A program made the position numbers and the translations under genes. The notes under the pieces are model-generated. The model did no database searches. It worked only from the letters and a program-made list of their open reading frames with translations, and had not been told where the DNA came from. A DNA stretch of 64,000 nt. It comes from an archaeon. Lineage in GTDB: Archaea; Nanobdellota; Nanobdellia; Pacearchaeales; GW2011-AR1. The stretch lies in contig JABIDS010000009.1 of the NCBI GenBank assembly GCA_018651605.1, positions 84,563-148,562 on the forward strand. Direction: 5' to 3'. This document shows positions 35,025-51,383 of the stretch, one piece after another. Positions within the stretch are counted from its first letter, which is position 1. Each line of letters begins with the position of its first letter.

Positions 35025-35047
35025 AAAATAAAAATAAGTTAAAAGAA

Positions 35048-35593: not shown

Positions 35594-35745
35594 TTTATGT
35601 TATTTGTAAGGGAAGGATATATTTAAGTTTTTGGATTGGAGGTGGGGGTTTGGTTGTTGTAATGTTATGAAAGAGTTTATTGATTGGGAGAAGATTTAAA
35701 TATGGTAAGTTTTTACTTAGATTAGCTCTGTTAGTGGAGTTTAAA

Positions 35746-35818
35746 CCCTCGATCGTATAATGGTTTATTACAGGCGGCTGTAGACCGCTTAATGCGAGTT
35801 CGATTCTTGCTCGAGGGA
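35746..35818 (+). tRNA. tRNA-Tyr (GUA)
   Basis: Acceptor ccctcga/tcgaggg with the C1-G72 pair typical of archaeal tRNA-Tyr; anticodon stem ggcgg/ccgct with loop ctGTAga; T arm gcgag-ttcgatt-cttgc; discriminator A. Confidence 0.85.
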
Positions 35819-35819
35819 T
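35808..35819 (+). repeat. attL core (tgctcgagggat) at 3' end of tRNA-Tyr
   Basis: Exact 12-bp repeat of 50573-50584. Extends to 18/21 matches (35799-35819 vs 50564-50584). Confidence 0.75.
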
Positions 35820-35845
35820 TGATGTATATGTTCGTGTTTGGTAAG

Positions 35846-35853
35846 ATTTATAA
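35846..35853 (+). promoter_or_regulatory. TATA box for integrase gene
   Basis: atttataa is centred 26 nt upstream of ATG 35876. Confidence 0.45.
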
Positions 35854-35875
35854 GGAAAAGGTTAGTAGATAATTC

Positions 35876-36970
35876 ATGGCGTTAGAAAACCAATACAAAA
35901 GAAGAAAAGAAGAATTATTAAATAATGTTTCTCCTTCAAATAAAAAATTATTTAATAAGTTCTTTGAATGGGAAGAGAACAAATTAAAGAGGAGTAATGG
36001 TATCTCAGAAATAGACGAAAGAAGCTATAAAACCCTTATTCTCTACATTCATTATTTTAAAAATTTAAATAAATGGTTTAAAGGAAAAGATTGGAAGAAG
36101 CTAACAAAAAAAGATATTAGAAAAGTATATGATGATTTAGAAGAGGGAAGAATAAAAAAATCCAATGGGGAACCTATGAAAGACAAGGTTTCTTATTACA
36201 ATAAAGTTTTCAAATCCAAGCCTTTTTCTCTTGCAGGAAAAAAAGATATTGCAGAAGAGGTTATTGAATTTACAGCCCCACAAATAGAACCAGTAAGATT
36301 TATTACTGAAGAAGATTTTAAAAAATTAGTTAAGGTTGTAGGTTTAAATTTTAAATTAATGTTTTGGTTGTTATGGGACATAGGAGAAAATGTAGGGTCT
36401 ATATTAGATTTAAGAAAAAAGAACTTTGTTAGAAAGATTGATGAAAATAAAGAACCAGAATATCATGTAATTCTTAACAAAGAAATTCTTAAAAGAAGTA
36501 GAACTCCTAGAACTGAACCAACACATTATAAGGAAACTGTTGAATTATTAGATTTAGTTTTACGAGACTTAAAAGATGATGATAAAATCTTTAATTTCGG
36601 AATGAGATATGCTGAACAAATTATGAAAAAAGCAGTTAATAAAACTAAAATTAAATGTAAACCTTCTGGAGAACAACCAACTATCAAAGATTTAAGAAGT
36701 GGAATGGCTTGTCATCTTTTATCAGAATGGGGATTTTCCACAGATGAACTTAAATCAAGATTAGGACATAAACCTTCTAGTAGGGCTATAGATAAATATG
36801 TTAATTATCTTGCTTTAAATAAGGTCCAACCAAAAAGAAAAATTTATGAGAGCAATATTAAACAATTGGAAACAGAAATTAAAGAGATGAGAGAAAGAGA
36901 AAAAATAAAAGATAGGAAAGTTCAAAAGCTTCAGGAGTTCTTAGATAAAATGGAGAAGAGGTTTAAATAA
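35876..36970 (+). CDS. tyrosine recombinase / integrase
   Basis: C-terminal catalytic pattern: DLRSGMACHLL (R, H), RLGHKPSS (H) and IDKYVNY (Y). Sits next to the tRNA att site. Confidence 0.8.
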   Translation: MALENQYKRRKEELLNNVSPSNKKLFNKFFEWEENKLKRSNGISEIDERSYKTLILYIHYFKNLNKWFKGKDWKKLTKKDIRKVYDDLEEGRIKKSNGEPMKDKVSYYNKVFKSKPFSLAGKKDIAEEVIEFTAPQIEPVRFITEEDFKKLVKVVGLNFKLMFWLLWDIGENVGSILDLRKKNFVRKIDENKEPEYHVILNKEILKRSRTPRTEPTHYKETVELLDLVLRDLKDDDKIFNFGMRYAEQIMKKAVNKTKIKCKPSGEQPTIKDLRSGMACHLLSEWGFSTDELKSRLGHKPSSRAIDKYVNYLALNKVQPKRKIYESNIKQLETEIKEMREREKIKDRKVQKLQEFLDKMEKRFK

Positions 36971-37602
36971 TTTGAACAAAAGTTCTTCTAAAGAATAAAT
37001 ATTCACACATAGTTTATTGGGGAGTTCTATTATCTTCATATATCCGTGAAACAATTAGAGATTTTGAAAACATGAAACTAATTTTCTACTTCTCATATTA
37101 TAATCTTCCTTATTTTATTTATAGTCTTTCTTTATCCATTTTCTTTTACGTTTTTTAATTGCTTCTTTTTTATCAAGTTCCTTTTCATTCTTATTTCATT
37201 CTATGAATTCTTTAGTATCTATTTCTTGCTGGAAAAAATCTTTGAGCATCTGGCACATTTGTATTTTCTTCTGCGTTCTAGAAGTACTAAAGATTAAAAG
37301 CAGTTTGGACATTTTGGTTGTAGATTTAATTTTTGCATGAGTGTTAATAGGTGGAGAAGTATTTACGTTTTGTTGAAATAGTAGCTTTTTTCTAGACCAA
37401 AAGACTTTTAAAAGGTATATACCTTGTATATTAGAGTATTTTCAGTTATGACTTAAAGAGTATACAGATTAATAAAAAGGTAAATGTAACCTTAAGTAAG
37501 CAAGAAATAAACGTCCCTTTTTTTCACAAATAAATGAGGATTTTTTTATTTATAAAACCTTGTAATCACTTTAAAACAACACTAAATTTTAAAACAAAAA
37601 AA

Positions 37603-38481
37603 ATGAAGATAAAAACACAAAGGAGTGAGAAAAAGATGGATGATGTAAATTTAGTCCAGCTTCCAAGCAATCAATTTGTTATTCCAAATAGTCAGGAAAT
37701 AGATTTGTCAAAGGTTTGTAATCAGAAGATTATAACTATGCCTTTTGCAGTTAAAGGTTTTAAATTCAGTTCAAGAAACATGAATAAATTTAACTCTTCT
37801 AATGTGAGCGAACAAAGGCAAGGATATAAAGAACTTTGTAACTTATATCCGAATTCAAAATTTCTTTTACATATCCAAGTCAAAGAAAAAACTGAATTTA
37901 CTGATGAACAAATAGAATTTATCGAGAAAGTTCAAGAGATTGAACAAAGTCCTTTTTTCTGTGTTTATGAGAAATCATACAAACAATCGGAAAAAGAACT
38001 TAAATCTCAGTTGATAGAGGCAAGAAAAAAATATCCTGACAAGGAAATAGTTCCAGCAGTAGAAATCTATACAAGATATAATGCGGAGAAGGTTAATGTT
38101 ATGTCTGAGCTTAATATCAAGAAATGTATTGTAATTTACAGGAACTATATCAAATATGAAGAAGAGTGGAAGGAATTAATGGGACTACTTGACACCATGG
38201 AAATTTCTCGTTTTGTTTTTGGTGTTAATCCACGTATGAGAAGGAAAAACAGGGCGTCGGTTTTATTAGCCCCATTAAGATATGGTGCTAATTATGTATG
38301 TCATGGACTTCCTTGGAGCGGTGGAAAAGGAAATGTCTATCTTTTAGATAACTGGGTTTACAAAGTTACTCAGAGAGCAACATATCCTATAAGCCGAGTA
38401 GATGCTTTGAATAAAGTAAATACATTGACACCAGAAATAAAAACATTAAGTGTAGAGCAAATTGAAACCTTGCTTTACTGA
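37603..38481 (+). CDS. hypothetical protein (island)
   Basis: ORF. Start moved to ATG 37603, downstream of the TATA-like tttatttataaaa. No motif. Confidence 0.5.
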   Translation: MKIKTQRSEKKMDDVNLVQLPSNQFVIPNSQEIDLSKVCNQKIITMPFAVKGFKFSSRNMNKFNSSNVSEQRQGYKELCNLYPNSKFLLHIQVKEKTEFTDEQIEFIEKVQEIEQSPFFCVYEKSYKQSEKELKSQLIEARKKYPDKEIVPAVEIYTRYNAEKVNVMSELNIKKCIVIYRNYIKYEEEWKELMGLLDTMEISRFVFGVNPRMRRKNRASVLLAPLRYGANYVCHGLPWSGGKGNVYLLDNWVYKVTQRATYPISRVDALNKVNTLTPEIKTLSVEQIETLLY

Positions 38482-38676
38482 TAGAGAAATATAGGGATGC
38501 TTATTGTATGCCTTATCCCACTCTAATAAAATTTTTTCTTTTATTTCTTTTTTTCTTTTTTTAGTTATTCTTCCTTCTATAAATGCTTTATCTACTTTCC
38601 GTCTTAGTGCTACAAGCATTATACATTTTCTTTTAAATTCAAGATGCCTTTCTTGTTTTTCATTATGGTTTTCCAT
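38446..38676 (-). CDS. hypothetical basic protein (76 aa, island)
   Basis: Start moved to ATG 38676 (MENHNEKQ), overlapping the stop of the upstream RHH ORF. Confidence 0.4.
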   Translation of the reverse strand: MENHNEKQERHLEFKRKCIMLVALRRKVDKAFIEGRITKKRKKEIKEKILLEWDKAYNKHPYISLSVKQGFNLLYT

Positions 38677-38842
38677 TGCTAATATCAATAAAAGGTTTAT
38701 TATTGAATACCCAATTTTCAATTATTTTTTTCATTAATTCAGAACGAGAATTACATCCATATAGTTTGAAAGCTCCGTCTAATAATTTTATGTTATTTTT
38801 CCCAACCGTGAATGAAACCTGATTTTCTTTTTTACTAACCAT
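38663..38842 (-). CDS. ribbon-helix-helix (CopG/Arc-like) DNA-binding protein (59 aa)
   Basis: Hand-translated MVSKKENQVSFTVGKNNIKLLDGAFKLYGCNSRSELMKKIIENWVFNNKPFIDISNGKP shows a beta-strand plus two-helix RHH pattern. Below the track cutoff. Confidence 0.55.
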   Translation of the reverse strand: MVSKKENQVSFTVGKNNIKLLDGAFKLYGCNSRSELMKKIIENWVFNNKPFIDISNGKP

Positions 38843-38947
38843 TTTATTGGTAACTTACCTTTAATTTTAAATGTAATGTTAATTTATAAATGTTTGTAAC
38901 TTACCTCTAATAGAAACATTTAAATAATAATATATACTAAGTATACT

Positions 38948-39136
38948 ATGGAAAAGAAAAAAATTGACATAGACCTTAGAGTTAGTTTAGATGAAGGAGA
39001 CGAAATGATAGAGAGAGATATAAGAAAATTTGGAAATGCAAGTCACGTAATATTGCCTCAGAAACATGAAGGGAAAAAAGCAATCATAATAATTACTGAG
39101 GAGATAAGGGATGAAACTAATTTAGTCAAGAGATAA
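38948..39136 (+). CDS. small AbrB/SpoVT-like (DUF2080-like) protein
   Basis: KFGNASHVILPQKHEGKKAIIII resembles the FGNSxxVxLPKxxxGKxV swapped-hairpin motif. Confidence 0.5.
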   Translation: MEKKKIDIDLRVSLDEGDEMIERDIRKFGNASHVILPQKHEGKKAIIIITEEIRDETNLVKR

Positions 39137-39145
39137 GTAAATCTA

Positions 39146-39403
39146 TCAAATTCGAAACTCTTTCAACTCCACCAACAACTCAAGATACTTCTTTCCCCTA
39201 TCACTAATAACATAATAGCTCTTCTTGTGACCTTTATCTTCCCTAACAATTAAATCTTTCTCTAATAAGTATTTCAATGCTGTCTGCAAAGTATCATGAC
39301 TCAAACCAATATCTTTATACAAACTGGCATAATTTTCATTTTTCTTATTTAACATATATAATATTTTATACAAACATTCAACAATTTTTATTTTAAATAT
39401 CAT
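39146..39403 (-). CDS. winged-helix transcriptional regulator (85 aa)
   Basis: YASLYKDIGLSHDTLQTALKYLLEKDLIVRED...YYVISDRGKKYL shows the wHTH pattern. Confidence 0.6.
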   Translation of the reverse strand: MIFKIKIVECLYKILYMLNKKNENYASLYKDIGLSHDTLQTALKYLLEKDLIVREDKGHKKSYYVISDRGKKYLELLVELKEFRI

Positions 39404-39460
39404 ACGGGAAAACCGATGTATTTATATATAACTATTACATAGAATTATCTATGCAATACA

Positions 39461-39880
39461 ATGGAGGTATTTAATATGAAAGTTGAAAGATTAATTTTAA
39501 GTTTGTTGTTATTTGTAGCAGTTTTTGTAGCTTTATTCTTTTTCATGCAATCAAATGAAGGATTTACGGGTAATGTTGTAGGAATAGATAGTAAAGCAAA
39601 AAAGATTGTAAATACGATAACACCTATTAAAAGTGATGCAGATAAGTGTGCAGAGAAGTATTTCTCATGTATTCAAAGATGTCCTCCTTCTTTATTAGAT
39701 GCAAGACTTTTGAGTTATACATGTTTTGTTTCATGTGCAGGGACTTATGGCGAAGAATGTGGAGAGGTAGGTTATGATTTGAGTTATAGTAATGAGGCGA
39801 AGATTGATTGTTTAGGTGAATGCATGACAGATTCTAAAATAATGACTTATAAAATAAACTGTATGGATAATTGTTTGTAG
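39461..39880 (+). CDS. secreted cysteine-rich protein
   Basis: Signal/TM helix followed by about 10 Cys in 90 aa. An alternative start is ATG 39476. Confidence 0.55.
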   Translation: MEVFNMKVERLILSLLLFVAVFVALFFFMQSNEGFTGNVVGIDSKAKKIVNTITPIKSDADKCAEKYFSCIQRCPPSLLDARLLSYTCFVSCAGTYGEECGEVGYDLSYSNEAKIDCLGECMTDSKIMTYKINCMDNCL

Positions 39881-39902
39881 ATAATTTTTCTTTTTTATTA
39901 TT

Positions 39903-40835
39903 TTATAATTCTATTTCAACCCAAACTAAATAATGGTCTGATTGTTCTTTAGTTATTTCTGTATAAATTCCATCATCAACATATTCTTCATTCATATCAT
40001 CATTTATAATAATTCTATCATAAGCACAATCTGTTTGTGAAACAGTTGTATCTTCACCATCTTCAATTAGATAATTCCAATCTACAAAATCTCCAGCCTT
40101 TCCATCATCATAACTACAATCTAAATTAAAATCTCCAATAATTAGGACATTTCCTGAATCCTCAACTAAATTTTCAAGTAAATTAATATCTTCTTCTACA
40201 CTATCAGGACTTGTATGATAATTCCAAGCAGTTAATTCATAATCATCAATAAGAAATTCAACCTTTAGTGGTGGTCTTTGAACTTCATCTTGATATTCTG
40301 AAGTATAATCAGTTAATGTTGCTTCAATACTTTTCTTATAGATAACTCCATATTGTTCTTTGCTTGTAGATTGACCTGCTCTTTGAGATATTTGACAATC
40401 ATAATCTTCTAATGAACTACAAAGAGTATTGAATGAACTTCCATCTTTATCTCGGATTTCTTGAAGGAAAAATATGTCATAATCTTCTATTAATGGAACA
40501 AAAAAACTTGAACCTAATTTACCCCATTTAGAATCTCCAAATATCTGTGCATTAAAGTTTGCTATCTTAATGTTTTGTGAATTAGGTTCTGGTTCATCTA
40601 TTACTTCTTTCTCTTCTTTATCGTCATCTTTCTCTTGTTCTTCTTCATCCTCACCATCCTCAAAAAATTCTTCTTTTGTTTCTTCAATAAAATCTTTAGT
40701 GTTTTCTGTTTGTTCTTCAATAATTCTAATAGTATTCCCTGTAATAGTATTAGTATCACTTGGAATCAAATAAAAGAAACTTCCAATTCCAATTACCAAT
40801 AAAAATATTAGTGTGAATAGTAATTTTTTAGCCAT
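39903..40835 (-). CDS. secreted endonuclease/exonuclease/phosphatase-family nuclease (DNase I-like)
   Basis: N-terminal TM/signal and acidic linker; IANFNAQIFG, FFLQEIRD, IIGDFNLDC and C-terminal SDHYLVWVEI are the EEP catalytic motifs. Confidence 0.8.
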   Translation of the reverse strand: MAKKLLFTLIFLLVIGIGSFFYLIPSDTNTITGNTIRIIEEQTENTKDFIEETKEEFFEDGEDEEEQEKDDDKEEKEVIDEPEPNSQNIKIANFNAQIFGDSKWGKLGSSFFVPLIEDYDIFFLQEIRDKDGSSFNTLCSSLEDYDCQISQRAGQSTSKEQYGVIYKKSIEATLTDYTSEYQDEVQRPPLKVEFLIDDYELTAWNYHTSPDSVEEDINLLENLVEDSGNVLIIGDFNLDCSYDDGKAGDFVDWNYLIEDGEDTTVSQTDCAYDRIIINDDMNEEYVDDGIYTEITKEQSDHYLVWVEIEL

Positions 40836-40836
40836 T

Positions 40837-41016
40837 TTATTTTTTTCTTAACTTATTTGCATATTCGACCTCTAATCTCTCATTTTTTTTAAAAGATTTA
40901 AGTAATCTAACAATTATAGAATTATAAGTTTCACCTTCCCCCAATCTTAAATTTTCAAGTTCTTCCTTAGTTTCCCTTGATACGACAATTTTAGGATTTT
41001 GTGGATAAGCTATCAT
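40837..41016 (-). CDS. small CopG/VapB-antitoxin-like protein (59 aa) immediately upstream of the DNase gene
   Basis: Hand-translated MIAYPQNPKIVVSRETKEELENLRLGEGETYNSIIVRLLKSFKKNERLEVEYANKLRKK follows the IxVSxETxxxLxxLxxGEsYxxVIxxLL pattern. Its stop lies 1 nt before the DNase ATG. Confidence 0.5.
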   Translation of the reverse strand: MIAYPQNPKIVVSRETKEELENLRLGEGETYNSIIVRLLKSFKKNERLEVEYANKLRKK

Positions 41017-41069
41017 AATATATTGTAATGTATTAGATATAAAAGGATTTAGTTAGGGGATTAAGATAG

Positions 41070-41393
41070 TTAGAATGAAGGCTTTTTATAATAAGGAATA
41101 AAGAGATTCCGATTCATTAAAATTCTAAAGATAACAATAAGAAGGAAGATAAAAATCAAGAAGATAAAAATTATGTTCATATAAATGGAAGGATTACTGC
41201 TCATCATTATTACATTATATACTCTTGATATAGCCATCCATGCAAGAAACAAAAAGAGCCATATGAAAAACATATCCTTAAAACCCCAATTTTTAGGTTC
41301 TATATTCATTGTTCTCCTATAGTTTGTTGGGATGTGATAACTCTCCTTCAATTCAAAAAACTTTTTCTTCAAATTAGCATGTACTTTTTTCAT
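41070..41393 (-). CDS. membrane protein (island)
   Basis: Start moved to ATG 41393 (MKKVHANL), which overlaps the upstream stop (ATGA). Two TM helices. Confidence 0.5.
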   Translation of the reverse strand: MKKVHANLKKKFFELKESYHIPTNYRRTMNIEPKNWGFKDMFFIWLFLFLAWMAISRVYNVIMMSSNPSIYMNIIFIFLIFIFLLIVIFRILMNRNLFIPYYKKPSF

Positions 41394-41539
41394 TTTCTCC
41401 TCAACCAACTCAAAGCATAAATCAAACTAATCACTAACAAGAACACTCCAGCAATCTTAATATAATGCCCACCAGCCAATAAACCAATACCAGCAATTAA
41501 AGAGATTATGAATAATCCTAAATCATTATTAGATTTCAT
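41390..41539 (-). CDS. small membrane protein (49 aa)
   Basis: Hand-translated MKSNNDLGLFIISLIAGIGLLAGGHYIKIAGVFLLVISLIYALSWLRRK, with two TM helices. Confidence 0.4.
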   Translation of the reverse strand: MKSNNDLGLFIISLIAGIGLLAGGHYIKIAGVFLLVISLIYALSWLRRK

Positions 41540-41540
41540 T

Positions 41541-41729
41541 TTAACTTGAAACCCATTTTTTAAATCTGCCTGCCATAGTAATCAAACCTAATACCGCTAA
41601 AATAATTCCTATAAACATCATAATTCCACCAATTTTTGAACCTTCAAATAAAAAAGGTACAGTTCCTTTAAAAAATAAGAGAAAACCTAAAACAAACATT
41701 ACTGCCCCAGTTAATAATTTGACTACCAT
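41541..41729 (-). CDS. small membrane protein (62 aa)
   Basis: Two TM helices, tightly packed in the operon. Confidence 0.5.
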   Translation of the reverse strand: MVVKLLTGAVMFVLGFLLFFKGTVPFLFEGSKIGGIMMFIGIILAVLGLITMAGRFKKWVSS

Positions 41730-41774
41730 TTTCTTTAATTCCTAGTAAAAACTACAAAATCAAACTTTATTAAA

Positions 41775-42023
41775 TTAACCTTTAGTAATAATTTTATCTA
41801 ACTTATCTTCAATCCTTTGTAATTGGGAATCTTCCCTAAGTTTCTTCCTACACCATTCAGAAAGAGAAATATTTTCATTTTTAGCCCTATCTTTCATCCT
41901 ATTGAGAGTATCCGTATCAATCATAAAGTGTATCTGAGAATTCTTTTTTAATGACGAATTAATATATTCTAAATTTTCTATTATCTCTTGCCCTATATCT
42001 TTTTTTCCTTGCCATTTATTCAT
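41775..42023 (-). CDS. ribbon-helix-helix-like protein (82 aa)
   Basis: HFMIDTDTLNRMKDRAKNENISLSEWCRKKL shows the RHH pattern. Confidence 0.5.
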   Translation of the reverse strand: MNKWQGKKDIGQEIIENLEYINSSLKKNSQIHFMIDTDTLNRMKDRAKNENISLSEWCRKKLREDSQLQRIEDKLDKIITKG

Positions 42024-42250
42024 TTCATTCTCCTCCGATTATTCCAACGAATAACCTTGATAGGTCGAACAGTTATTAAAAGCAAAATAGAAATAATAAG
42101 GAGGGAGATTAAGAACAATGACATATCGCCTAACCATCGATACTCTGTTCCCCAGGATTTTATTATTAAATCAATTAATATGATTGGAAGTGCCATTATA
42201 GCAAAATAAAAAATACCTTCAAGAAACATCTCTTTTAGTGCCTTTTTCAT
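42020..42250 (-). CDS. small membrane protein (76 aa)
   Basis: Two TM helices. A 4-nt overlap with the downstream RHH gene. Confidence 0.5.
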   Translation of the reverse strand: MKKALKEMFLEGIFYFAIMALPIILIDLIIKSWGTEYRWLGDMSLFLISLLIISILLLITVRPIKVIRWNNRRRMK

Positions 42251-42304
42251 TTTAATTAAGGATATTCTTCATTTATTAAATTAACTAAACAATTACTTAC
42301 TTGT

Positions 42305-42841
42305 TTAATCATAAAAAATTTCTTCAGGTTCATCGATTCTTTCTTGAATTAATTCTGCTAACCAATCTGCAGTTTCTTCTAAATTTTCAATTATAGAAAT
42401 ATTAGGTATTCTTTGAGTATGGTAGCCTTTTGATAATGAATAAATTGTTCTCTTCATATCTGCCAATGCCTGTCTAGAATTAGTATTATGGTGTCTGCCA
42501 TCTACTTCTATATTAAATTTAGCTTTTGGAATAGCAATATCAATAGTTTTATGTCCGTCCCATTTTTCTAATTCTGCAGGAATACCTCTTTTTATCAGTT
42601 CAAAATACAATGTTCTTGATTCACTGGTGGATTTTTTCAATTTCTTTTTACTTATATAATGAACTTCCTTATCATCATCTCTTTCATCATAATCATCTTC
42701 ATATTCTTCATCATAATCTTCTTGGCATCCCTCACATAATATCTTACCAAAATTTTCTTTTGAATCCTCCATAATACTTCTAGTTATTACTTCCTTACAT
42801 TCTGAACAATAATACTCATAATCCATGAAATAATTAAACAA
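42305..42841 (-). CDS. zinc-ribbon + DUF559/Vsr-like restriction-endonuclease-fold protein
   Basis: N-terminal CSEC...CEGC and an acidic linker. The C-terminal IDIAIPKAKFNIEVDGRHH resembles the DUF559 core (D...EVDG..H). Confidence 0.6.
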   Translation of the reverse strand: MFNYFMDYEYYCSECKEVITRSIMEDSKENFGKILCEGCQEDYDEEYEDDYDERDDDKEVHYISKKKLKKSTSESRTLYFELIKRGIPAELEKWDGHKTIDIAIPKAKFNIEVDGRHHNTNSRQALADMKRTIYSLSKGYHTQRIPNISIIENLEETADWLAELIQERIDEPEEIFYD

Positions 42842-42941
42842 TACCTAGTTAAATAATTTTCTAAATAATCATCTGATTATTTATTAGAAAAAACTTAAAT
42901 ATGCTTAAAATCTCTCTAAAATAAAGAAATGATTAAGGAAA

Positions 42942-43541: not shown

Positions 43542-43662
43542 GGGTTAGCCATTGGAAGCAAAACAATCACATGATTGTTTATTACACATAAACATCCTTA
43601 TGAAAATAACTACTTAAAATTAATTGTTTTAATCTTATTCTTTTGTTAATCTTTGCTAAATT

Positions 43663-44991
43663 TTATAACATTTTTATTTTTGAAATTAACAAATTTCGAA
43701 TATCTCCACCACTACAATAAACACTATTTGAACCCTTTCCTAGAAGAAATTCTTCTTCCCTAAGACCCAACGCCCTAAGAACTGCCATAAGTGATACTTC
43801 TGAAAATTTATATTTACTTTCACTTAAACATTTTTCATAATAAAATAAACTAATATTCGCCCCAATAATTTTGTTATCTTCTAAAACATATTCTTGATTA
43901 ATTGCAGGAGTTCCATCAAGCCAAAAATCCGTTTCATAAGAAAATGATTCTTTACTTATATTTTCATATTTTTTACAATAAAATTTAAGGTTTGAGGATT
44001 CCTTATCGCCTTCATAAATTAATAATTCTTTTAACGCATTTATTTCGATTTCTTTTATGGCATTTTTGATGTTATCAGTAGCATAATCTTCACAACCCAA
44101 TATTGAGTAAGTTACTGGATAATTATTCCATAAATAATTTTTCTTTTCTAAAATTTCTTCCTCTTTTTTTAATTCTACTTCATATTCTAAATCATACGGA
44201 TATATATTCAAGTTTGAACAATCTCCTTTAATTTCTCCATTAGAGTAGATGTGCTTTAAACAATTTATTGTATCTGCATCTATCTCTTTTATTTTACAAG
44301 TTTGAATAGAAATTTTTAAAGGGAACATTATCTGATTAGGAGTATCATAAACATGTCTAAATCCGAAGGTATGCAATATTTCATGAATTTCTGTCTGTGG
44401 AAAATCAAGACATTTTCCATTATAACTTCCCAGATAATTTGAAAAGAAAATTACTTCCCCAGTATTTATTTTATTTTTGTTAAAATCAGTAATTCCTCCG
44501 ACTCCTAAGACTTCCCATCCATCATAATTTTGATAAGTCCCATTAGAATCATAAAGTCCTTGAATTTTAAGTTTAGGATTTTCAGTTTCACTAACTTCCT
44601 TGAAGGTAATTAATCCTTCAGTTTCTTCTTCAATAATATTTAGTGCCTCTTTAATTCTTTTAACTTGCTTATTTCTAGAAATTCCATCCCTATACCAACT
44701 TTGACTTGATTCAGAATAGATGCCTAATGATGAGATATTTAAACTATAAGTTATAGGCATTTCTCTCCAATGCATTTCATTAACTTTTGAAAATGAATCA
44801 TTAATCAAATAATTTTTATTTTCTTTATCATAATCCTCATACGAATATTTCTTAGGAGTTTCTTCCAGATTTATTTTTGATGAATAAAAAAAAGCCAAAA
44901 CTAAAAAAATCATAAATACTAAAATAATTAAGAAATTTTTAAAACTATCTCTCTTTACATTTTTCCCCATTTTATTTTTTTCCCAATTCAT
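43663..44991 (-). CDS. secreted/anchored metzincin zinc metalloprotease (matrixin-like)
   Basis: HEILHTFGFRH (HExxHxxGxxH) plus the Met-turn QIMFP. N-terminal TM helix. Paralogous motif block to 33969-35024. Confidence 0.8.
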   Translation of the reverse strand: MNWEKNKMGKNVKRDSFKNFLIILVFMIFLVLAFFYSSKINLEETPKKYSYEDYDKENKNYLINDSFSKVNEMHWREMPITYSLNISSLGIYSESSQSWYRDGISRNKQVKRIKEALNIIEEETEGLITFKEVSETENPKLKIQGLYDSNGTYQNYDGWEVLGVGGITDFNKNKINTGEVIFFSNYLGSYNGKCLDFPQTEIHEILHTFGFRHVYDTPNQIMFPLKISIQTCKIKEIDADTINCLKHIYSNGEIKGDCSNLNIYPYDLEYEVELKKEEEILEKKNYLWNNYPVTYSILGCEDYATDNIKNAIKEIEINALKELLIYEGDKESSNLKFYCKKYENISKESFSYETDFWLDGTPAINQEYVLEDNKIIGANISLFYYEKCLSESKYKFSEVSLMAVLRALGLREEEFLLGKGSNSVYCSGGDIRNLLISKIKML

Positions 44992-45178
44992 TCATTAATT
45001 ACATTATATATTATAAAAATAGAGAGAGTGAGTATTTATTAAATTAACCCTTAGAAGTCCAAACAATCACCTGATTGTTTATTGTGAAGATTTGGATGGT
45101 TTTTAGAAGTAGAAATGAGTGATTTTAGGAGGTAGATTATTTAGTAAAGTTTTTATATCATATTTTATTAAATAATCT

Positions 45179-45346
45179 ATGAAATATAAGGGATTAATGG
45201 GATTAGTTATGATTATAATTGGAATTACCATAGTTTTAAAATTCCCCACATCAATGAATGGTTTTGGTATACTAATAGGTATGGGGCTTATTGTTATTGG
45301 AGGCCCTCTTACATTAACAAGCTTTATGAAATTTGTTACCAAATAA
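45179..45346 (+). CDS. possible small membrane protein (55 aa)
   Basis: Hand-translated MKYKGLMGLVMIIIGITIVLKFPTSMNGFGILIGMGLIVIGGPLTLTSFMKFVTK. More protein-like than the antisense 85-aa track ORF. Confidence 0.35.
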   Translation: MKYKGLMGLVMIIIGITIVLKFPTSMNGFGILIGMGLIVIGGPLTLTSFMKFVTK

Positions 45347-45381
45347 CTCATTTTCCCCATCTTTGATAATATCCACTCTTT

Positions 45382-45606
45382 CTAAATATTCATAAACCTC
45401 TCAACCGCTTCTTTTGCCCTTTTTGAAGATATCTTAAATCTTTTCATTAATAATTTGTAAGTGTTAGAATTTATCTTCTCTTCTACATATAATGGAACTA
45501 AAAAATCCCAAAAGTTTCCAAAGTGTGGGGAATCGCAGGGTTCTATTAATTCAGCATTTACTATTTGTCTTGTTTCAGGAGACCATACTTTTATTTTTTT
45601 TACCAT
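45382..45606 (-). CDS. hypothetical protein (74 aa, island)
   Basis: ORF abutting the upstream gene. Confidence 0.45.
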   Translation of the reverse strand: MVKKIKVWSPETRQIVNAELIEPCDSPHFGNFWDFLVPLYVEEKINSNTYKLLMKRFKISSKRAKEAVERFMNI

Positions 45607-46116
45607 CTACCCTTCCTTCCAAAACCAATATTTTCTTAGGTTGTGGTGATTTGAAATTCGCGCCCGTAATCCCTCTGAATGTTCAGTAATAATTATATCT
45701 GCCTTTTTACAAAAACTACAATGAAATTTATTTTTTCTTGCAGTCGGCATTCTCATTTGAAAATGGCCTTGGTATGCAATCAAATTAATAGCAAGTTCTC
45801 CAATCTTCTTACAAGTGCTTAAATCTTCTGGATTAACAATTGCAAGAGAAGGCTTATCTGCTTGAGAGTCAAGAATAACAACCCGAAAACATTTTTTATT
45901 ATGTCTTAATCTGAGGTGTTTTGGAATCCTCATATAACTATCATGAGGCAAATCACAAACCTCATGAAACTGAACTTTTAAAGGGTCATTCTTATCTCTT
46001 TTAGAAACATAAGGGATGAAGTTCCCATGCTTATTCATACGCTTTTTCTTAACAGGTTTTCCTGCATAAGTCTTTGGTTTCTTATGAGTTCCACCTTTAT
46101 CTGACCTAGTTTTCAT
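45607..46116 (-). CDS. hypothetical basic protein (169 aa, island)
   Basis: ORF with a K/R-rich N-terminus and His/Cys-containing core. No family recognised. Confidence 0.5.
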   Translation of the reverse strand: MKTRSDKGGTHKKPKTYAGKPVKKKRMNKHGNFIPYVSKRDKNDPLKVQFHEVCDLPHDSYMRIPKHLRLRHNKKCFRVVILDSQADKPSLAIVNPEDLSTCKKIGELAINLIAYQGHFQMRMPTARKNKFHCSFCKKADIIITEHSEGLRARISNHHNLRKYWFWKEG

Positions 46117-46206
46117 ATCAATTTCTCGGAATTCCTAATAAAATTCCGAACCCCCTTATAAATAATTCCGAACCCCATAATTAACATTTTACCGTCTATA
46201 AACATC

Positions 46207-46530
46207 CTAAAAATCCTCCTGAAGCTCATCTTTCATACCTATTCCGAATTCCGAATTTGCACATGTGTCCCCATAAGAGAATAAGATTAATCTATTGAGA
46301 TTAGTCTTTATCCTCGCTATTTTATTTAATCTTGGGAGCATTAAGATTGATTTATGTGGGTTTTTTCTCTCAGACCGCTGGGAATCCTTTAATGTGAGTG
46401 TACACATATTTGAGGTTTTTTTATTACCTATTGGTCTTATATGAACTTTTTCCATTTCTTCAGAAATTTGATTTTTAGTAATCCCAAACTTCCCTACCCT
46501 AGTGCAATTGAACTTTTTATTAATACTCAT
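46207..46530 (-). CDS. hypothetical protein (107 aa, island)
   Basis: ORF only. Confidence 0.45.
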   Translation of the reverse strand: MSINKKFNCTRVGKFGITKNQISEEMEKVHIRPIGNKKTSNMCTLTLKDSQRSERKNPHKSILMLPRLNKIARIKTNLNRLILFSYGDTCANSEFGIGMKDELQEDF

Positions 46531-46657
46531 TTTTATTTTAAAGTATCACTCCTTAATTTATTTTTCGTATATCTTGCCTCATATTTAAGTTTAGTTTTTG
46601 TTTCTCTTTCTCTTTCCAATTTATTTTCTTTTGTTGTTGTCATTTTATTTTAAAAGA

Positions 46658-46672
46658 AGGGGCAATGCCCCT
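46658..46672 (-). terminator. GC-rich hairpin followed by T-run on the minus strand
   Basis: aggggc-aat-gcccct is the only GC-rich hairpin in this AT-rich spacer. On the minus strand it is followed by tctttt, downstream of the putative Rep operon. Confidence 0.3.
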
Positions 46673-46730
46673 CCAATTCTCGCAGGCAACTAATAAACCA
46701 ATTGGTAATTTAATTCGCGAGTATATTTGT

Positions 46731-46853
46731 TCATTCTAAATCATCTCCAATGAGGTGCTCATCCATTTTATTTGAACATTCCTTACAGAGTTCTGAAATA
46801 TATTCTGTCTTCTCTTTCAAACATCCATTACATTTTATTTTATTTTTTTTCAT
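46731..46853 (-). CDS. possible zinc-ribbon peptide (40 aa)
   Basis: Hand-translated MKKNKIKCNGCLKEKTEYISELCKECSNKMDEHLIGDDLE (CxxC...CxxC). Its start overlaps the upstream stop. Confidence 0.35.
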   Translation of the reverse strand: MKKNKIKCNGCLKEKTEYISELCKECSNKMDEHLIGDDLE

Positions 46854-47008
46854 TATATTTCTCCAAATTCTTTTAATAATCTCCTTTGTTGATTTAGTTC
46901 TAGGGTTTCTTTTTCTTTTTCTGAATAATCTTCAGGATAGTTTTTCCTTCTGCGTTTTGAATCCAAAAGCATGGACTCAAGTATTTTGTTGTCAGTTTGC
47001 TCGGTCAT
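46853..47008 (-). CDS. possible small protein (51 aa)
   Basis: Hand-translated MTEQTDNKILESMLLDSKRRRKNYPEDYSEKEKETLELNQQRRLLKEFGEI. Confidence 0.3.
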   Translation of the reverse strand: MTEQTDNKILESMLLDSKRRRKNYPEDYSEKEKETLELNQQRRLLKEFGEI

Positions 47009-47057
47009 TTTTGGTTACCATCACCCCTAGGATTTAGTAGCCTCTTTTAATCACCTC

Positions 47058-49187
47058 TTATATTTTTGCTTCTTTCAATTCATTTATTAATTTTATTTTA
47101 TTATCTTGAAGAAGAATTTGAGACATCTCTTTTCCTAAATCTCCTAAATCTTCAATAGAATATTCCTTATCGGGTTCAAGAGTAATTTTTATCTCTTGCC
47201 CTTTTTTATATCCTGCGATGTTTAAGGATTCTAGAGGTGTAAACTTGCCTACTCCACCCTCCAAACCAAGTGTCAAAGTGTCAGAAGTGTCAGATTTACG
47301 CTTAATTTTCTTATTTTTTTTTTCAAGTGTCAGATTACTTACTGACACCTTCTTATTAAGTGTCAAGTAAGTGTCAGTATACCATTTATTTATTTTATCG
47401 TCGTTATACTTACACCCTGACACCTCTGACACTATTTTTAATATATTCTCTTTAACTACAAACCCTTGTCTTAATAAAATCTCTATGACCTTATAAAAAT
47501 CCAATCGATATCCCCTTTGATTTCCAGTAGGGTTTTCTCTAAAATCAGTAAATCCAAGACTGCTTAATATCATACCAATTTTAGTGTTTGAAATATCATA
47601 ATGTCTAGGACTTTGCTCATCTAGTTCACTAGTAAATTGATTTTTTATGAATTCTACAGATAAAAACTTTTCAACTTCATGTTGACTAAACAATTTAATT
47701 ACCGTTTGAGCCATTATCATCTCCCAACTTTGTTCATCAAAATTAAAATCTCTTATCTCAAATAATCTAACTAAAAAAGAACCTATTTTCTTTTCTAAGT
47801 TCTTATTAATACAACTAGCTAATGCAATCAATGGCTTTGCCAATACCCATTGTCTATTCGCTAATCCATAATCATTTTTAATATTTTTTAGTGAATCTTC
47901 ATATTTTTTATAATTCAATAAACCACAAATATAAATTTTATTTCTTATAGAGCAATATTTAGAATCATCTTCAGGAGGAGGTTCAATATTTCCTCTTAAA
48001 TCTCCTTTTGGTGCTTTAATCATATGCAATGCCACGCTTCTTTGTCCCAAAGCTCCTCTTAGAGGTTTTATAGAACCTATTGCAGAATCCCCTGCAGGGT
48101 CAAATTCATCTGTTTGATTTATATTTTTATCATTTTGTCTAGGAACAGTATTCCCTTTTTCATAACTTCCATTAAGATATTCAACAAGTTCAGAATCCCC
48201 TGTAGTCTTCTTTTTAGAATCATCAAAAAGTCTTTCCATTTCTTCCATAAATAATGTAGCTTTGTTATGATGTCTGTATCTGAAAAAATTTGCAGGAGTG
48301 GGGCATAAGAATTTTTTCCCATTAAAAGAAAGATTTGCTCCAATTCTCATTCCTTTAGATTTTGCAACTCCTGAAATACCTTCATGTTTAATAATTAAGA
48401 ATTTGTCATTTAAATCCCAGAAATAAGTTTTTAAATCTCTTAATGGAAGAAGAAAATACCACATATCATTTTCAAAAACCATCCCCTCATCATAGAATTT
48501 TTTAACGTCATTAAACACTTTTTCAAAGGTGTAGTCTTTTTTATTTAAATTACCCTCGCAAAAAAATTTAATAGAATTCAAACTCCACCTATTTCTTTTT
48601 AAGGTCATAATAGAATCAAAAACAAAGTTAACATCCTCAGGCTTATTATTTTCAGTAATTATTTTTCCATTTTCAAGAACAATCCCTGGAGATAATTCAG
48701 TAGTTTGTATTAATTTGCCTCTCTGCTTTTTTAAAATTAATTCATTAACCTTAATTCCATAATATCTATAGTTCTTATTTTTTATTTTTATCTTACCAAC
48801 TGCGTGGTCAAGAACCTGAGGTAATTCTGAATCATCTAAGATAAATTTATTTAAATCTTTATTAAACTCTTCTTTTTCTTTTCCCTCTAATCTTTCTTTC
48901 AAATCTTCATTATATTCATCTACAAATCTATCCGCATTTTCTTGACTTACCCTCATATAAACACAACTCTTCTCATTAGTTTTCAGCATCTTTTTATCTT
49001 GGAAAGCAACTTCTTTATTGTCTGGGTCTTCTCTAGGCAATTGTTTTAAGTGTTTTGTTAGAGTTTCCTTATCACTCAACCATTTCGCATATTTTTCTTT
49101 CTTAACTTGTTCTTCATCTGTTAAGTATTCTTTAAATTCAACCCTCTCAACATTTTCTTTAGTTGTCATTTTCAACACCTTTTTCAT
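47058..49187 (-). CDS. large island protein (709 aa), candidate replication protein
   Basis: Largest island ORF, heading an operon behind RHH/HTH genes. Degenerate P-loop-like GISGVAKSKG is followed ~43 aa later by LFMEEME (SF3-helicase-like spacing). An iteron array lies inside its 3' part. Function is inferred only. Confidence 0.6.
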   Translation of the reverse strand: MKKVLKMTTKENVERVEFKEYLTDEEQVKKEKYAKWLSDKETLTKHLKQLPREDPDNKEVAFQDKKMLKTNEKSCVYMRVSQENADRFVDEYNEDLKERLEGKEKEEFNKDLNKFILDDSELPQVLDHAVGKIKIKNKNYRYYGIKVNELILKKQRGKLIQTTELSPGIVLENGKIITENNKPEDVNFVFDSIMTLKRNRWSLNSIKFFCEGNLNKKDYTFEKVFNDVKKFYDEGMVFENDMWYFLLPLRDLKTYFWDLNDKFLIIKHEGISGVAKSKGMRIGANLSFNGKKFLCPTPANFFRYRHHNKATLFMEEMERLFDDSKKKTTGDSELVEYLNGSYEKGNTVPRQNDKNINQTDEFDPAGDSAIGSIKPLRGALGQRSVALHMIKAPKGDLRGNIEPPPEDDSKYCSIRNKIYICGLLNYKKYEDSLKNIKNDYGLANRQWVLAKPLIALASCINKNLEKKIGSFLVRLFEIRDFNFDEQSWEMIMAQTVIKLFSQHEVEKFLSVEFIKNQFTSELDEQSPRHYDISNTKIGMILSSLGFTDFRENPTGNQRGYRLDFYKVIEILLRQGFVVKENILKIVSEVSGCKYNDDKINKWYTDTYLTLNKKVSVSNLTLEKKNKKIKRKSDTSDTLTLGLEGGVGKFTPLESLNIAGYKKGQEIKITLEPDKEYSIEDLGDLGKEMSQILLQDNKIKLINELKEAKI
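47269..47432. repeat. iteron-like array: 10 copies of GTGTCA(G)/CTGACAC
   Basis: Direct copies start at 47269, 47277, 47286, 47326, 47359 and 47370. Inverted copies lie at 47342-47348, 47417-47423 and 47426-47432. A perfect inverted repeat, gtgtcag-8nt-ctgacac, spans 47327-47348. Confidence 0.8.
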
Positions 49188-49494
49188 CTTCTGATGATTT
49201 GTTTATTCTATTAAAATTATCAATATTTTCAAAACACAATGTTAATTTAACAGGATTTATACTCCAACCTTCTGCGATTTGATAGATAAGTTTTGCAGTT
49301 TTTGGTAAGTCATATCCTACCAAAATTTGTCTTACTCTTCCTTGAGAAATTCCTGCCTTTATTCCTGCTTCCTTATAATCTCGAAATCTTAACCTCAGGT
49401 ATGTTTTCAAATCATTTGCGTTTAAATCATCATTAAGTAGGTATTTATTAGAGATGATATTGTTAATATTTGGGTTTGATTGTGAATTTTTCAT
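49159..49494 (-). CDS. HTH DNA-binding protein (111 aa)
   Basis: YKEAGIKAGISQGRVRQILVGY shows the helix-turn-helix pattern. Confidence 0.55.
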   Translation of the reverse strand: MKNSQSNPNINNIISNKYLLNDDLNANDLKTYLRLRFRDYKEAGIKAGISQGRVRQILVGYDLPKTAKLIYQIAEGWSINPVKLTLCFENIDNFNRINKSSEDEKGVENDN

Positions 49495-49495
49495 C

Positions 49496-49651
49496 TTAAA
49501 CGGCCTTGATTGCAGAATTTAATTTCTGATTTTCTCTTAAGATTTTATTTAAAGGGATTTCAATATCATTCTCAATTATAAAAGTTAATTTTGGAAATCT
49601 CTCTCGAAATTCATCGTTAATAAAAGGTTTTTTATTTGATTCAAATTGCAT
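49496..49651 (-). CDS. possible small protein (51 aa)
   Basis: Hand-translated MQFESNKKPFINDEFRERFPKLTFIIENDIEIPLNKILRENQKLNSAIKAV. Packed between two genes with overlapping or abutting codons. Confidence 0.35.
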   Translation of the reverse strand: MQFESNKKPFINDEFRERFPKLTFIIENDIEIPLNKILRENQKLNSAIKAV

Positions 49652-49790
49652 TTTGTTTTTCCTGAATTTTTTGTAACACTAAAAATCTAATAAAAGAGGA
49701 TGTTGATAATCCAGAATCCTCTGCAATTTTTAATATTCTTTTTTTATTTTTATCGTCTATAAAAAATGTTATTGATTTTCCTTTTTCCAT
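49641..49790 (-). CDS. ribbon-helix-helix protein (49 aa)
   Basis: Hand-translated MEKGKSITFFIDDKNKKRILKIAEDSGLSTSSFIRFLVLQKIQEKQNAI is a classic RHH. First gene of the minus-strand operon. Confidence 0.55.
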   Translation of the reverse strand: MEKGKSITFFIDDKNKKRILKIAEDSGLSTSSFIRFLVLQKIQEKQNAI

Positions 49791-49929
49791 TTTACTAATA
49801 ACCTATGGTATTTTATAGTACTTTAAGGTAGATATGGTTTATAAACATTTCTATCATATAGTTTTATAGTTTACCATAATGTTTATATATTGATTTAGAC
49901 TTCTAATTTAAATATTATCCAAAAACAAG

Positions 49930-50532
49930 ATGGTTCAAAAACAAATTAACTCAAATGAAGAAGGTGTAAAGAATCTTTTTTTTGACAAAGAAACTCTTGA
50001 AAATGATTTTGAAGGTCTGATGACTTCTCTAACAGATATTGAACAAGGAGTAATAAAGATTTTATATGAGAAAAAACACGCTATGACAATGAGTAAAATA
50101 AGAGGTCTTTTAGTTGATGCTTATTTTCATTACTTAATAGAATTTTATGAAGAAAATACTAAAAAAAAGATTAACAACTTGGCTGAAAAGTCTATTAAAT
50201 GGAGACCTAATTTAGAATTAACATTTTTACAGGCAGAAAAGGTCATGCAAGGAATTACTAAAAAGATGAAAGAAAGGGGTGATAAAGCATTGTATGAGAG
50301 CCAGAGACTAAAAGAAATCAATGATGTTATGATTAATAATGGAATTATACTTCCTTCTAGGAATCTTGTTAATTCCTCCTTGATTAATCTAAAAAGAATG
50401 GGCTTAGTTTCTTTTAGATATGTTATTCCAACCAATTCTCTTAATAAGGAGGATTTTAATAAAAAAGATAGATATCAAAGAGAAATATGGTTCTTAAATC
50501 CTAAATTTTATACTTTTCTAAAAAAGTTATAA
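49930..50532 (+). CDS. hypothetical protein with wHTH-like segments (200 aa)
   Basis: IEQGVIKILYEKKHAMTMSKIRGLL and SSLINLKRMGLVSFRY resemble winged-helix recognition regions. Confidence 0.5.
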   Translation: MVQKQINSNEEGVKNLFFDKETLENDFEGLMTSLTDIEQGVIKILYEKKHAMTMSKIRGLLVDAYFHYLIEFYEENTKKKINNLAEKSIKWRPNLELTFLQAEKVMQGITKKMKERGDKALYESQRLKEINDVMINNGIILPSRNLVNSSLINLKRMGLVSFRYVIPTNSLNKEDFNKKDRYQREIWFLNPKFYTFLKKL

Positions 50533-50572
50533 TCCCTTAATTGTTTAAAACCCGAACTATAACTTCTATTAC

Positions 50573-50584
50573 TGCTCGAGGGAT
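50573..50584 (+). repeat. attR core (tgctcgagggat)
   Basis: Exact 12-bp copy of the tRNA-Tyr 3' end (35808-35819). Confidence 0.75.
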
Positions 50585-50630
50585 ATCCTGTTTTCTATAA
50601 ATTTAAAAACTTGAATATCTTTAGAATTGT

Positions 50631-51320: not shown

Positions 51321-51383
51321 TTGATTGGGATATAACTATTTTATTATATCAAAATTTATAATAGGAGTATTTTATTTTAGTAT

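Follow-up and report, generated by a model that had tools for sequence, protein, structure and literature searches.

A probable young, plasmid-like cryptic integrative element at the tRNA-Tyr gene of a Woesearchaeota-like archaeon

We analysed a 64,000-nucleotide (nt) stretch of archaeal DNA (contig JABIDS010000009.1 of assembly GCA_018651605.1; the whole stretch is called the window, and positions are counted from its first letter) in which a tRNA-Tyr gene is followed by a block of about 14.8 kb bounded by a short direct repeat. The tRNA-Tyr (GTA) gene, called by both ARAGORN and Rfam (RF00005, 54.4 bits), occupies 35746-35818 on the plus strand; it is the integration target, and it stays intact after the insertion. 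The mobile element itself comprises window positions 35820-50584 (14,765 bp), and ~27 open reading frames (ORFs) were counted between the two attachment (att) repeats, somewhat fewer than the roughly 30 genes proposed in an initial annotation of this DNA. The ends and the two conserved backbone genes, with the ORFs next to the second of them, are as follows.

35808-35819, plus strand: attL core TGCTCGAGGGAT, made of 11 nt of the tRNA 3' end plus 1 nt
35876-36970, plus strand: integrase of the tyrosine-recombinase type, 364 amino acids (aa), from phrog_216 and homologue alignments
47058-49187, minus strand: predicted superfamily 3 (SF3; D5/P4/DUF3631-like) helicase or initiator, 709 aa, from fold, motifs and the domain fusions of relatives
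49159-49790, minus strand: three small ORFs of 49, 51 and 111 aa, upstream of and co-oriented with the helicase gene
50573-50584, plus strand: attR core TGCTCGAGGGAT, an exact second copy

The 12-nt core TGCTCGAGGGAT consists of the acceptor 3' strand with the discriminator A (11 nt of the tRNA) and one trailing T. Searched on both strands of the 64-kb window with one mismatch allowed, it was found at these two sites only, against an expected count of 0.09, and two matches occurred in none of 100 shuffled sequences. The initial annotation had reported this pair of repeats, and direct reading of the sequence also bears out the extension to 18 of 21 nt that it gave (35799-35819 versus 50564-50584). 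When the last 45 nt of the tRNA together with the 10 nt that follow were compared with everything downstream, the att pair was the sole repeat of at least 10 nt in the window. The integrase gene begins where it had been placed, its ATG lying 57 nt after the tRNA, with the TATA-like sequence TTTATAA ~26 nt upstream of the ATG. The attP sequence is predicted to read ...CTATTACTGCTCGAGGGATTGATGTATATG... and the attB sequence reads ...TTCTTGCTCGAGGGATATCCTGTTTTC.... Positions 36970-37600 (~630 nt), between the integrase gene and a TIM-barrel gene described below, hold no convincing ORF; short frames on the minus strand there resemble a frameshifted remnant, and the region could be an attP arm, an origin or a decayed gene.

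A core of 12 nt is short, the contig derives from a metagenome with low coverage (~3.4-3.9x in ENA contigs), and the chromosomal neighbour of the tRNA encodes a matrixin, as does a gene inside the block. These points would suit a block that is not mobile at all, but an ancestral or host-owned variable region in which the repeat arose by chance or through a chimeric assembly. The chance expectation given above already speaks against this explanation, and so does the same locus in a relative. One genome per species was searched with the 3'-terminal 25 nt of the tRNA, and a single contig (L009) was returned, from a Candidatus Woesearchaeota metagenome-assembled genome. Its tRNA-Tyr is 97% identical to that of the window, and 40 bp after it comes a homologue of window gene 50631-51320 (43% amino-acid and up to 72% nucleotide identity); the intergenic sequence that follows the tRNA aligns with the sequence immediately to the right of the attR core. 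The 14.8-kb block is missing in L009, exactly between the positions of the two repeat copies. The tRNA-Tyr locus of L009 is an unoccupied (empty) site, such as the initial annotation had proposed to look for, and the block is not an ancestral one present in this relative.

Both junctions, moreover, were recovered in independent ENA assemblies of two other samples: L012 spans attL (window 35147-38923, 99.6% identity) and L014 spans attR (window 46076-50964, 99.94% identity). The repeat is therefore not an assembly artefact, and artefact and chance repeat alike are effectively excluded. The integrase gene adjoins the tRNA as it does in other members of its family, composition breaks sharply at both ends of the block (see below), and the metzincin inside it is 24% identical to the chromosomal matrixin (33969-35024). 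Taken with the empty site, this leaves a block that never moved with a next to negligible probability.

Gene order around the site differs between the two genomes. In the window (33969-53041) it runs matrixin, tRNA, element, 229-aa gene, 456-aa gene (minus strand), thermosome; in L009 (1-8000) it runs thermosome (minus), 461-aa gene (plus), tRNA, 237-aa gene and, further on, matrixin (minus). The blocks that flank the unit of tRNA-Tyr and the 229-aa gene are thus rearranged between them. Another contig, L008, in which homologues of both flank genes are adjacent, was considered as a second empty site; it has no tRNA between them and a different orientation, and was not used.

The element is set apart by its composition, with a GC content of ~0.28 inside versus ~0.33 outside. 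The initial annotation had contrasted the AAA, GAA and TTA codons of plus-strand genes inside the element with the AAG, GAG and TTG codons of plus-strand chromosomal genes, and the numbers hold: AAA/(AAA+AAG) is 0.76 in plus-strand genes of the element versus 0.51 in those of the host, GAA/(GAA+GAG) 0.74 versus 0.46, and the shares of TTA and TTG among Leu codons 0.53 versus 0.25 and 0.15 versus 0.58, respectively. The contrast, however, reflects a strand bias of the host and not a general preference for AAG and GAG. Indeed, host genes on the minus strand exceed even the element in AAA/GAA richness; third-position G (G3) and A (A3) are 0.25 and 0.22 in host plus-strand genes, and 0.06 and 0.48 in host minus-strand genes. 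In plus-strand terms, third codon positions of the host are G+T-rich in either gene orientation, with a keto excess of +0.53 for plus-strand and +0.29 for minus-strand genes. For the element the corresponding values are +0.04 and -0.08, and all 25 of its genes that were scored lack the host bias. The keto excess drops from 0.48 to -0.06 on crossing attL and rises from 0.11 to 0.57 on crossing attR, which places the left-hand switch at 35024-35876 and the right-hand one at 50532-50631. What distinguishes the element is the absence of the host's replication-strand imprint rather than 'different codons'.

The imprint also allows the insertion to be placed in time. L009 shows the same strand bias as the host of the window, and the flank genes, which lie on opposite strands in the two genomes, are in each case fully adapted to their own strand. 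Since the inverted genes have fully re-equilibrated, the imprint accumulates faster than the window and L009 genomes diverged; the element, which lacks it, is thus younger than that divergence. The recent acquisition proposed from codon style alone is supported on this different ground, and, jointly with the plasmid-like nature of the element argued for below, we consider it likely that the insertion is recent on the host's evolutionary timescale.

The asymmetry of the host is extreme across the window (compare genes 25113-26810, plus strand, with 58432-60312, minus strand). Third-position C is near 0 in plus-strand and G3 is 0.03-0.09 in minus-strand genes, codon usage depends on orientation, and the cumulative GC skew climbs over nearly the whole window.

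The 364-aa integrase was recognised through PHROGs (phrog_216 integrase, 2e-4) and not by a Pfam search. It has 614 homologues at 46-71% identity, some of which match PF00589 and which, where named, are labelled Pacearchaeota or archaeon. Judged by these sequences it belongs to a large, divergent DPANN family of at least 614 clusters, and a scan with the integrase alignment found no relatives among IMG/VR viral contigs. The ORF is unsplit and lies entirely outside the att core; integration was, therefore, not of the 'suicidal' SSV type. In two further family members the integrase gene lies 63 nt after a tRNA gene on the same strand (tRNA-Glu for P0153, tRNA-Ser for P0112), and the tRNA-adjacent layout occurs in the contigs L015-L018, which points to a tRNA-targeting family of varied specificity. 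No att repeat of at least 10 nt was found within the ~11 kb fetched for L015-L018, and those elements were not delimited.

We aligned the protein with a canonical integrase (BLASTP), with XerA (4A8E; profile search) and with a PF00589-type profile (hhalign, probability 46%). All three alignments agree on box II, K271-D-L-R274 (KxxR), on H298 as the second His and on Y308 as the nucleophile; Y308, R274 and H298 are conserved in 119-121 of 121 family sequences. They also agree that the position of the box I Arg is taken by Asn172, within an invariant D168-x-G-E171-N172, and position 172 is Asn in 119 of the 121 sequences and Arg in none. As the alignments are individually weak, replacement of Arg-I by Asn in this family is to be regarded as probable rather than proven. 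K206, R209, R212 and Y308 are invariant among the 121 sequences, and R209 and R212 might substitute for Arg-I. The natural integration event suggests that the Arg-I-less family is probably active.

Categories of integrases, including the SSV-type and the non-suicidal pNOB8-type archaeal enzymes, have been reviewed (PMC8371274). The window integrase resembles the pNOB8 type and XerA in that its gene is intact beside attL and the 3' end of a tRNA is targeted, and the box II Arg, the GH and the catalytic Tyr of XerA 4A8E align with it. It differs from them in box II, where K-D-L-R is the KxxR of SSV1-type enzymes (though the gene stays unsplit) and not YxxR or HxxR, and in the Asn at the first-Arg position with its D-x-G-E-N motif.

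The 709-aa protein had been annotated as a candidate Rep, a view that the fold and the relatives uphold and narrow. Homologue searches returned 63 close relatives and, at E <= 1e-3, 2578 representative clusters, and none of Pfam, PDB sequences, NCBIfam and PADLOC had a match; its class was recognised solely through fold comparison and the domain fusions of its relatives. The AlphaFold model (34 sequences; pLDDT 76.6) has a confident core at about residues 110-600. Its best Foldseek matches in the PDB are the helicase parts of African swine fever virus (ASFV) PrimPol C962R, poxvirus D5/E5 and SCCmec Cch, with MCM and ORC/Cdc6 ranking next (probability 1.0, E 6e-6 to 1e-3), whole-chain TM-scores being low at ~0.25-0.47. 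In BFVD the model matches phage primase-helicases at E 2e-21, and also DUF927, NrS-1-like, D5-type and P4-type proteins. Walker A corresponds to G270-ISGVAKS (K276, S277) in a strand-loop-helix, and Walker B to a strand followed by E315 and E316. These four residues are invariant, as are N346, R350 and R383, a pattern that fits a P-loop ATPase. Longer relatives carry N-terminal Prim-Pol, archaeo-eukaryotic primase (AEP) or BT4734-like domains with a CHC2 zinc ribbon, and one of them matches DUF3631 across the helicase part.

As modelled, then, the protein is an SF3 helicase of the primase-helicase (D5/P4-like) class. It resembles the D5/P4-alpha/DUF3631-type proteins (vaccinia D5, monkeypox virus (MPXV) E5, ASFV C962R, SCCmec Cch) in that residues ~110-600 of the model match their D5N and SF3 parts, and in the conserved Walker A Lys and Ser and Walker B Glu-Glu. 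It differs from them in having no sequence-level match to Pfam or the PDB and no primase part: residues 1-110 form low-confidence helices without a primase match. By tblastn the helicase matched no PLSDB plasmid and no INPHARED phage, and protein and alignment scans found no relatives of the family in IMG/VR, absences that hold at the sensitivity used.

The three small ORFs upstream are likely the regulatory part of a replication module. The 49-aa ORF is ribbon-helix-helix (RHH)/CopG-like and the 111-aa ORF has a weak helix-turn-helix (HTH) signal; the matches among the three were to RHH_1, RelB and NikA (3e-4 to 6e-3) and to Sigma70_r4 (1.6e-3). The helicase-family contigs L001-L008 have comparable runs of small ORFs on the upstream side of the helicase gene. 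At these loci elsewhere a tyrosine integrase is usually nearby, and a serine recombinase often (L001 16269-17467, L006 20164-21385, L008 14873-15571). In L001 and L006 the serine recombinase gene adjoins a homologue of a 169-aa protein that is encoded in the window at 45607-46116; of these two genes, the window element has just that of the 169-aa protein.

The arrangement recalls the pRN-family plasmids of Sulfolobales, in which the gene of a large replication protein with an SF3 helicase is preceded by genes for a small CopG/RHH protein and for a DNA-binding protein. This group, with its integrated or satellite relatives (pXQ1, pSSVi, pSSVx), has members that insert at tRNA genes and members that a helper virus packages. 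The window element likewise has RHH/CopG-like and HTH ORFs upstream of an SF3 helicase. However, RepA of pRN bears an N-terminal prim-pol domain, which the window helicase lacks, and no sequence similarity was detected (no PLSDB match); and the integrase of pSSVi is of the SSV type, split on integration, whereas the window integrase gene remains intact.

The remaining features of the element are the following.

37603-38481, plus strand: 292-aa TIM-barrel-like protein, first gene of a four-gene cassette; P0184 is identical
38446-38842, minus strand: two overlapping small ORFs of 76 and 59 aa, part of the cassette, called in L012 and L013; no Pfam match
38948-39136, plus strand: DUF2080 protein, 62 aa, last gene of the cassette (PF09853, 8.4e-6, above cutoff)
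39146-39403, minus strand: winged-helix regulator HTH_45 (PF14947, 7e-8)
39461-39880, plus strand: 139-aa Cys-rich protein with an N-terminal hydrophobic segment, from sequence; no family match
39903-40835, minus strand: putative membrane-anchored or secreted endonuclease-exonuclease-phosphatase (EEP, DNase I-like) nuclease/phosphatase (PF03372, 2.6e-11)
40837-41016, minus strand: DUF7557, small VapB/RHH-like DNA-binding protein (PF24434, 2.4e-6)
41070-42250, minus strand: four proteins of 112, 49, 62 and 76 aa with two predicted transmembrane (TM) segments each
41775-42023, minus strand: 82-aa RHH-like protein within the run of membrane proteins (NikA-like, 3e-4)
42305-42841, minus strand: Zn-ribbon plus DUF559 (Vsr-like endonuclease fold) protein (PF04480, 4.7e-5, above cutoff)
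42942-43541, plus strand: PD-(D/E)xK nuclease-domain protein with an N-terminal membrane anchor (PADLOC PDC-S69, 3.9e-10)
43663-44991, minus strand: membrane-anchored metzincin (matrixin-like) protease (PF00413, Peptidase_M10, 9.3e-7)
45382-46530, minus strand: three ORFs of 74, 169 and 107 aa with no assigned function
49930-50532, plus strand: 200-aa protein at the right end; no match in Pfam, PHROGs, NCBIfam or PADLOC
42863-42885, 43561-43583 and 45061-45083: three copies of the palindrome AAACAATCA-NN-TGATTGTTT, with a weaker copy at 42287-42306

The statement of the initial annotation that almost all genes of the element lack recognisable homologues was overstated, given the counts for the integrase and the helicase and the 15 metagenomic family matches of the TIM-barrel protein. 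Its secreted DNase was recovered as Exo_endo_phos, with an N-terminal hydrophobic helix; its metzincin carries the HExxHxxGxxH motif as HEILHTFGFRH; and its two nuclease-fold proteins are those with the DUF559 and PD-(D/E)xK domains. The former of these two also matches phrog_9529 (2e-7) and PADLOC mREase_II (9e-4), and the latter, which resembles candidate defence nucleases, HEAT_CxxC_PD-DEXK (1.2e-8) and the phrog_945 endonuclease (1.5e-4). Three of the four RHH or CopG-like proteins it had listed stood, DUF7557 and two with weak NikA/RHH matches, while the fourth (38663-38842) had no support from hidden Markov models (HMMs). Among its HTH and winged-HTH (wHTH) regulators HTH_45 was confirmed, and the 'wHTH' at 49930-50532 again had no HMM support. 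The 139-aa Cys-rich protein is probably exported, judging by its N-terminal segment. A fifth small protein with two TM segments, of 55 aa, is encoded at 45179-45346; for these small membrane proteins neither PHROGs nor Pfam gave a match, the PHROG search being uninformative here.

The start of the 292-aa protein was set at 37603, the mechanical ORF starting at 37534. Its model (pLDDT 71.8) has TIM barrels as top Foldseek matches (E ~2e-5); a role as primase, Rep or capsid protein was considered and rejected, the fold being that of a TIM-barrel-like enzyme. The cassette that it heads (37603-39136), a TIM-barrel-like protein of ~290 aa, two small reverse ORFs and DUF2080, recurs in L010 (10001-11536), adjoining an integrase gene within a terminase-bearing region, and in L011 (9044-10558), adjoining an IS240-type transposase gene. 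A homologue of HTH_45, 40% identical, occurs in the helicase-bearing contigs L001, L002 and L004. When 15 related loci were compared, recurrence was limited to the integrase, the cassette, HTH_45, the 169-aa protein and the helicase, each in a different subset; the metzincin has weak matches to matrixin-like genes there, none of the small membrane proteins recurs, and no structural module is common to these loci. By these comparisons the make-up of the element is a mosaic.

The 20-nt palindrome gave four matches versus 0.18 expected, is confined to the element within the window and was found in none of 18 other loci. The genes for the DUF559, PD-(D/E)xK and metzincin proteins lie between its copies, and the palindrome is a candidate operator, (bidirectional) terminator or cassette boundary. 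Iterons, tandem repeats and Rfam RNAs were sought within the element as an origin or regulatory RNA, with nothing convincing beyond these palindromes.

In agreement with the initial annotation, no capsid, terminase, portal, or packaging or conjugation ATPase matched in Pfam, PHROGs, NCBIfam or PADLOC. The hallmarks of Caudoviricetes (HK97-fold capsid, portal, terminase) had no Pfam or PHROG match among ORFs of at least 139 aa, and just two unassigned ORFs reach ~200 aa, those of 292 aa (the TIM barrel) and 200 aa (49930-50532). No ORF has a domain of the integrative conjugative element hallmarks sought (VirB4, VirD4, FtsK-type ATPase, mating-pore module), and of AAA+ ATPases, among which a DnaA-like one was sought, the element has just the helicase. 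A VP1-like capsid protein gave no PHROG or Pfam match, though short hydrophobic capsid proteins escape sequence searches. The lack of a conserved structural module, together with the mosaic make-up, favours a plasmid-like cryptic integrated element, and we conclude, with good though not full confidence, that the block is a young element of this kind at the tRNA-Tyr gene of a Woesearchaeota-like (DPANN) archaeon.

Elements of this kind are well known. Cryptic integrated elements (CIE) were defined for Thaumarchaeota (Krupovic et al. 2019, PMC6563490) as mostly shorter than 20 kb, flanked by short direct repeats (att down to 8 bp) and often located at tRNA genes (PMC6563490). The integrase is the one gene that all of them have, their replication proteins belong to the AEP, SF3-helicase or MCM types, and the remainder comprises RHH and wHTH regulators and hypothetical cargo, with no viral or conjugative hallmark (PMC6563490). 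The window element shares with them its size, a short att at a tRNA gene, an integrase, an SF3 helicase, RHH and wHTH proteins and the lack of hallmarks. It differs in its host, a Woesearchaeota-like member of DPANN, in a helicase that stands alone without a primase domain, and in integrase and helicase families that are other than those of CIE and uncharacterised, though large.

A cryptic plasmid-like element would have arrived as follows. Its tyrosine-type integrase would have recombined attP, carrying the core TGCTCGAGGGAT, with the chromosomal attB; crossover within the core would leave the tRNA intact (attL) and a second copy of the core at the far end (attR). In the integrated state it would be replicated passively, presumably quieted by the numerous small RHH and wHTH proteins that it encodes. 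After excision it would form a circle, replicated by its own module of the small RHH, the 51-aa and the HTH proteins and the SF3 helicase, which, lacking a primase, would need to recruit the primase and polymerase of the host. The remainder would be shuffled cargo: the exported DNase I-like nuclease, the metzincin, the Cys-rich exported protein, the small membrane proteins, the two nuclease-fold proteins and the TIM-barrel/DUF2080 cassette, with functions predicted from domains and folds.

Several observations weigh against this interpretation. No primase, polymerase or origin was identified in the element; about half of its ORFs have no assignable function; and the canonical first catalytic Arg is missing from the aligned position of the integrase, whose activity is deduced from the integration event. 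L009 is distant (flank genes share 43-59% amino-acid identity) and its upstream flank is rearranged. The attP and all four att junctions had no match in JGI metagenome or IMG/VR contigs, although this search is uninformative, because the source contig and the integrated junctions are equally missing from those collections. Lastly, the five small two-TM proteins could belong to the virion of a non-tailed archaeal virus, a kind of virus whose capsid proteins sequence comparison does not detect. An integrated non-tailed virus of a new lineage, or a satellite, with its virion or transfer proteins among the small membrane and exported proteins, is on balance an unlikely explanation, and its two forms can be weighed separately.

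As a provirus of an undescribed spindle-shaped or pleomorphic, membrane-containing DPANN virus, the element would encode its virion in the two-TM proteins (41070-42250, 45179-45346) and the exported proteins, with the integrase and the helicase as lysogeny and replication modules. A length of 14.8 kb, integration at a tRNA gene and an integrase with an SF3 helicase are typical of small archaeal viruses, and the fold matches in BFVD show helicases of this type to be widespread among viruses. In spindle-shaped viruses the major capsid proteins are tiny and have two hydrophobic helices, and the element has five proteins of this description; sequence searches miss the capsid proteins of spindle-shaped and pleomorphic archaeal viruses, tiny and hydrophobic as they are, and these families are not known to need a packaging ATPase. 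However, no PHROG or Pfam match ties any protein of the element to a structural protein, and a capsid should belong to the conserved core, yet no small membrane protein is kept in the 15 related loci. The absence of the helicase and integrase families from IMG/VR, the lack of an INPHARED match for the helicase, and an integrase that is not of the split SSV type also argue against a provirus, which we hold to be improbable.

The second form, a satellite functionally like pSSVi, P4 or the phage-inducible chromosomal islands (PICI), would use its own integrase and helicase and borrow the capsid of a helper. The classic satellite gene set is an integrase, a P4/D5-type helicase and small regulators without structural genes, in 10-15 kb at a tRNA site, and the element has this gene set, with many small regulators, at such a site. 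The lifestyle exists in archaea, in pSSVi and pSSVx, and SRCE satellites have been proposed for nanohaloarchaea (bioRxiv 10.1101/2025.02.15.638363). Against it, no gene in common with any known virus was detected and no helper virus is known, and the present data do not separate a satellite from an ordinary integrative plasmid. We rate it lower again than a provirus, as quite improbable.

A plasmid-like element of this type is of use beyond its own locus. DPANN mobile elements are poorly charted, and DPANN genomes are tiny and depend on host cells, so that genes borne on such elements, for instance the exported nuclease and protease found here, may affect how these archaea feed on their hosts. 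The element is cleanly delimited and apparently young; its ends are exact, an empty site exists and its two backbone families are conserved, and it is a suitable starting point in the search for related elements. Two things about it are less usual: an integrase family that apparently lacks Arg-I, and the strand-bias 'clock' of its host. If the former holds true, a large, active tyrosine recombinase family works without the canonical first Arg and with a D-x-G-E-N motif, which the defined attP and attB sequences make biochemically testable; the latter is an uncommon means, built into the genome, of telling recent arrivals from older residents.

Three host genes of the window are also unbiased: 29785-33729 (minus strand), 56511-57014 (plus) and 60353-61327 (minus), with keto excesses of -0.01, -0.06 and -0.08, respectively, among neighbours at +0.3 to +0.67. 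One of them encodes a 1314-aa FG-GAP/GEVED surface protein. The three may be further recent acquisitions or may have been recently inverted. Apart from the element, an intergenic sequence of ~85 nt (window 9275-9357, plus strand) has no credible Rfam match (chance level, E 0.8) and recurs in L009 (4587-4668) at 82% identity in a different neighbourhood. Two stable hairpins (-34.5 kcal/mol, z = -4.8) make up its fold, and it could represent a small RNA or else a mobile hairpin element.

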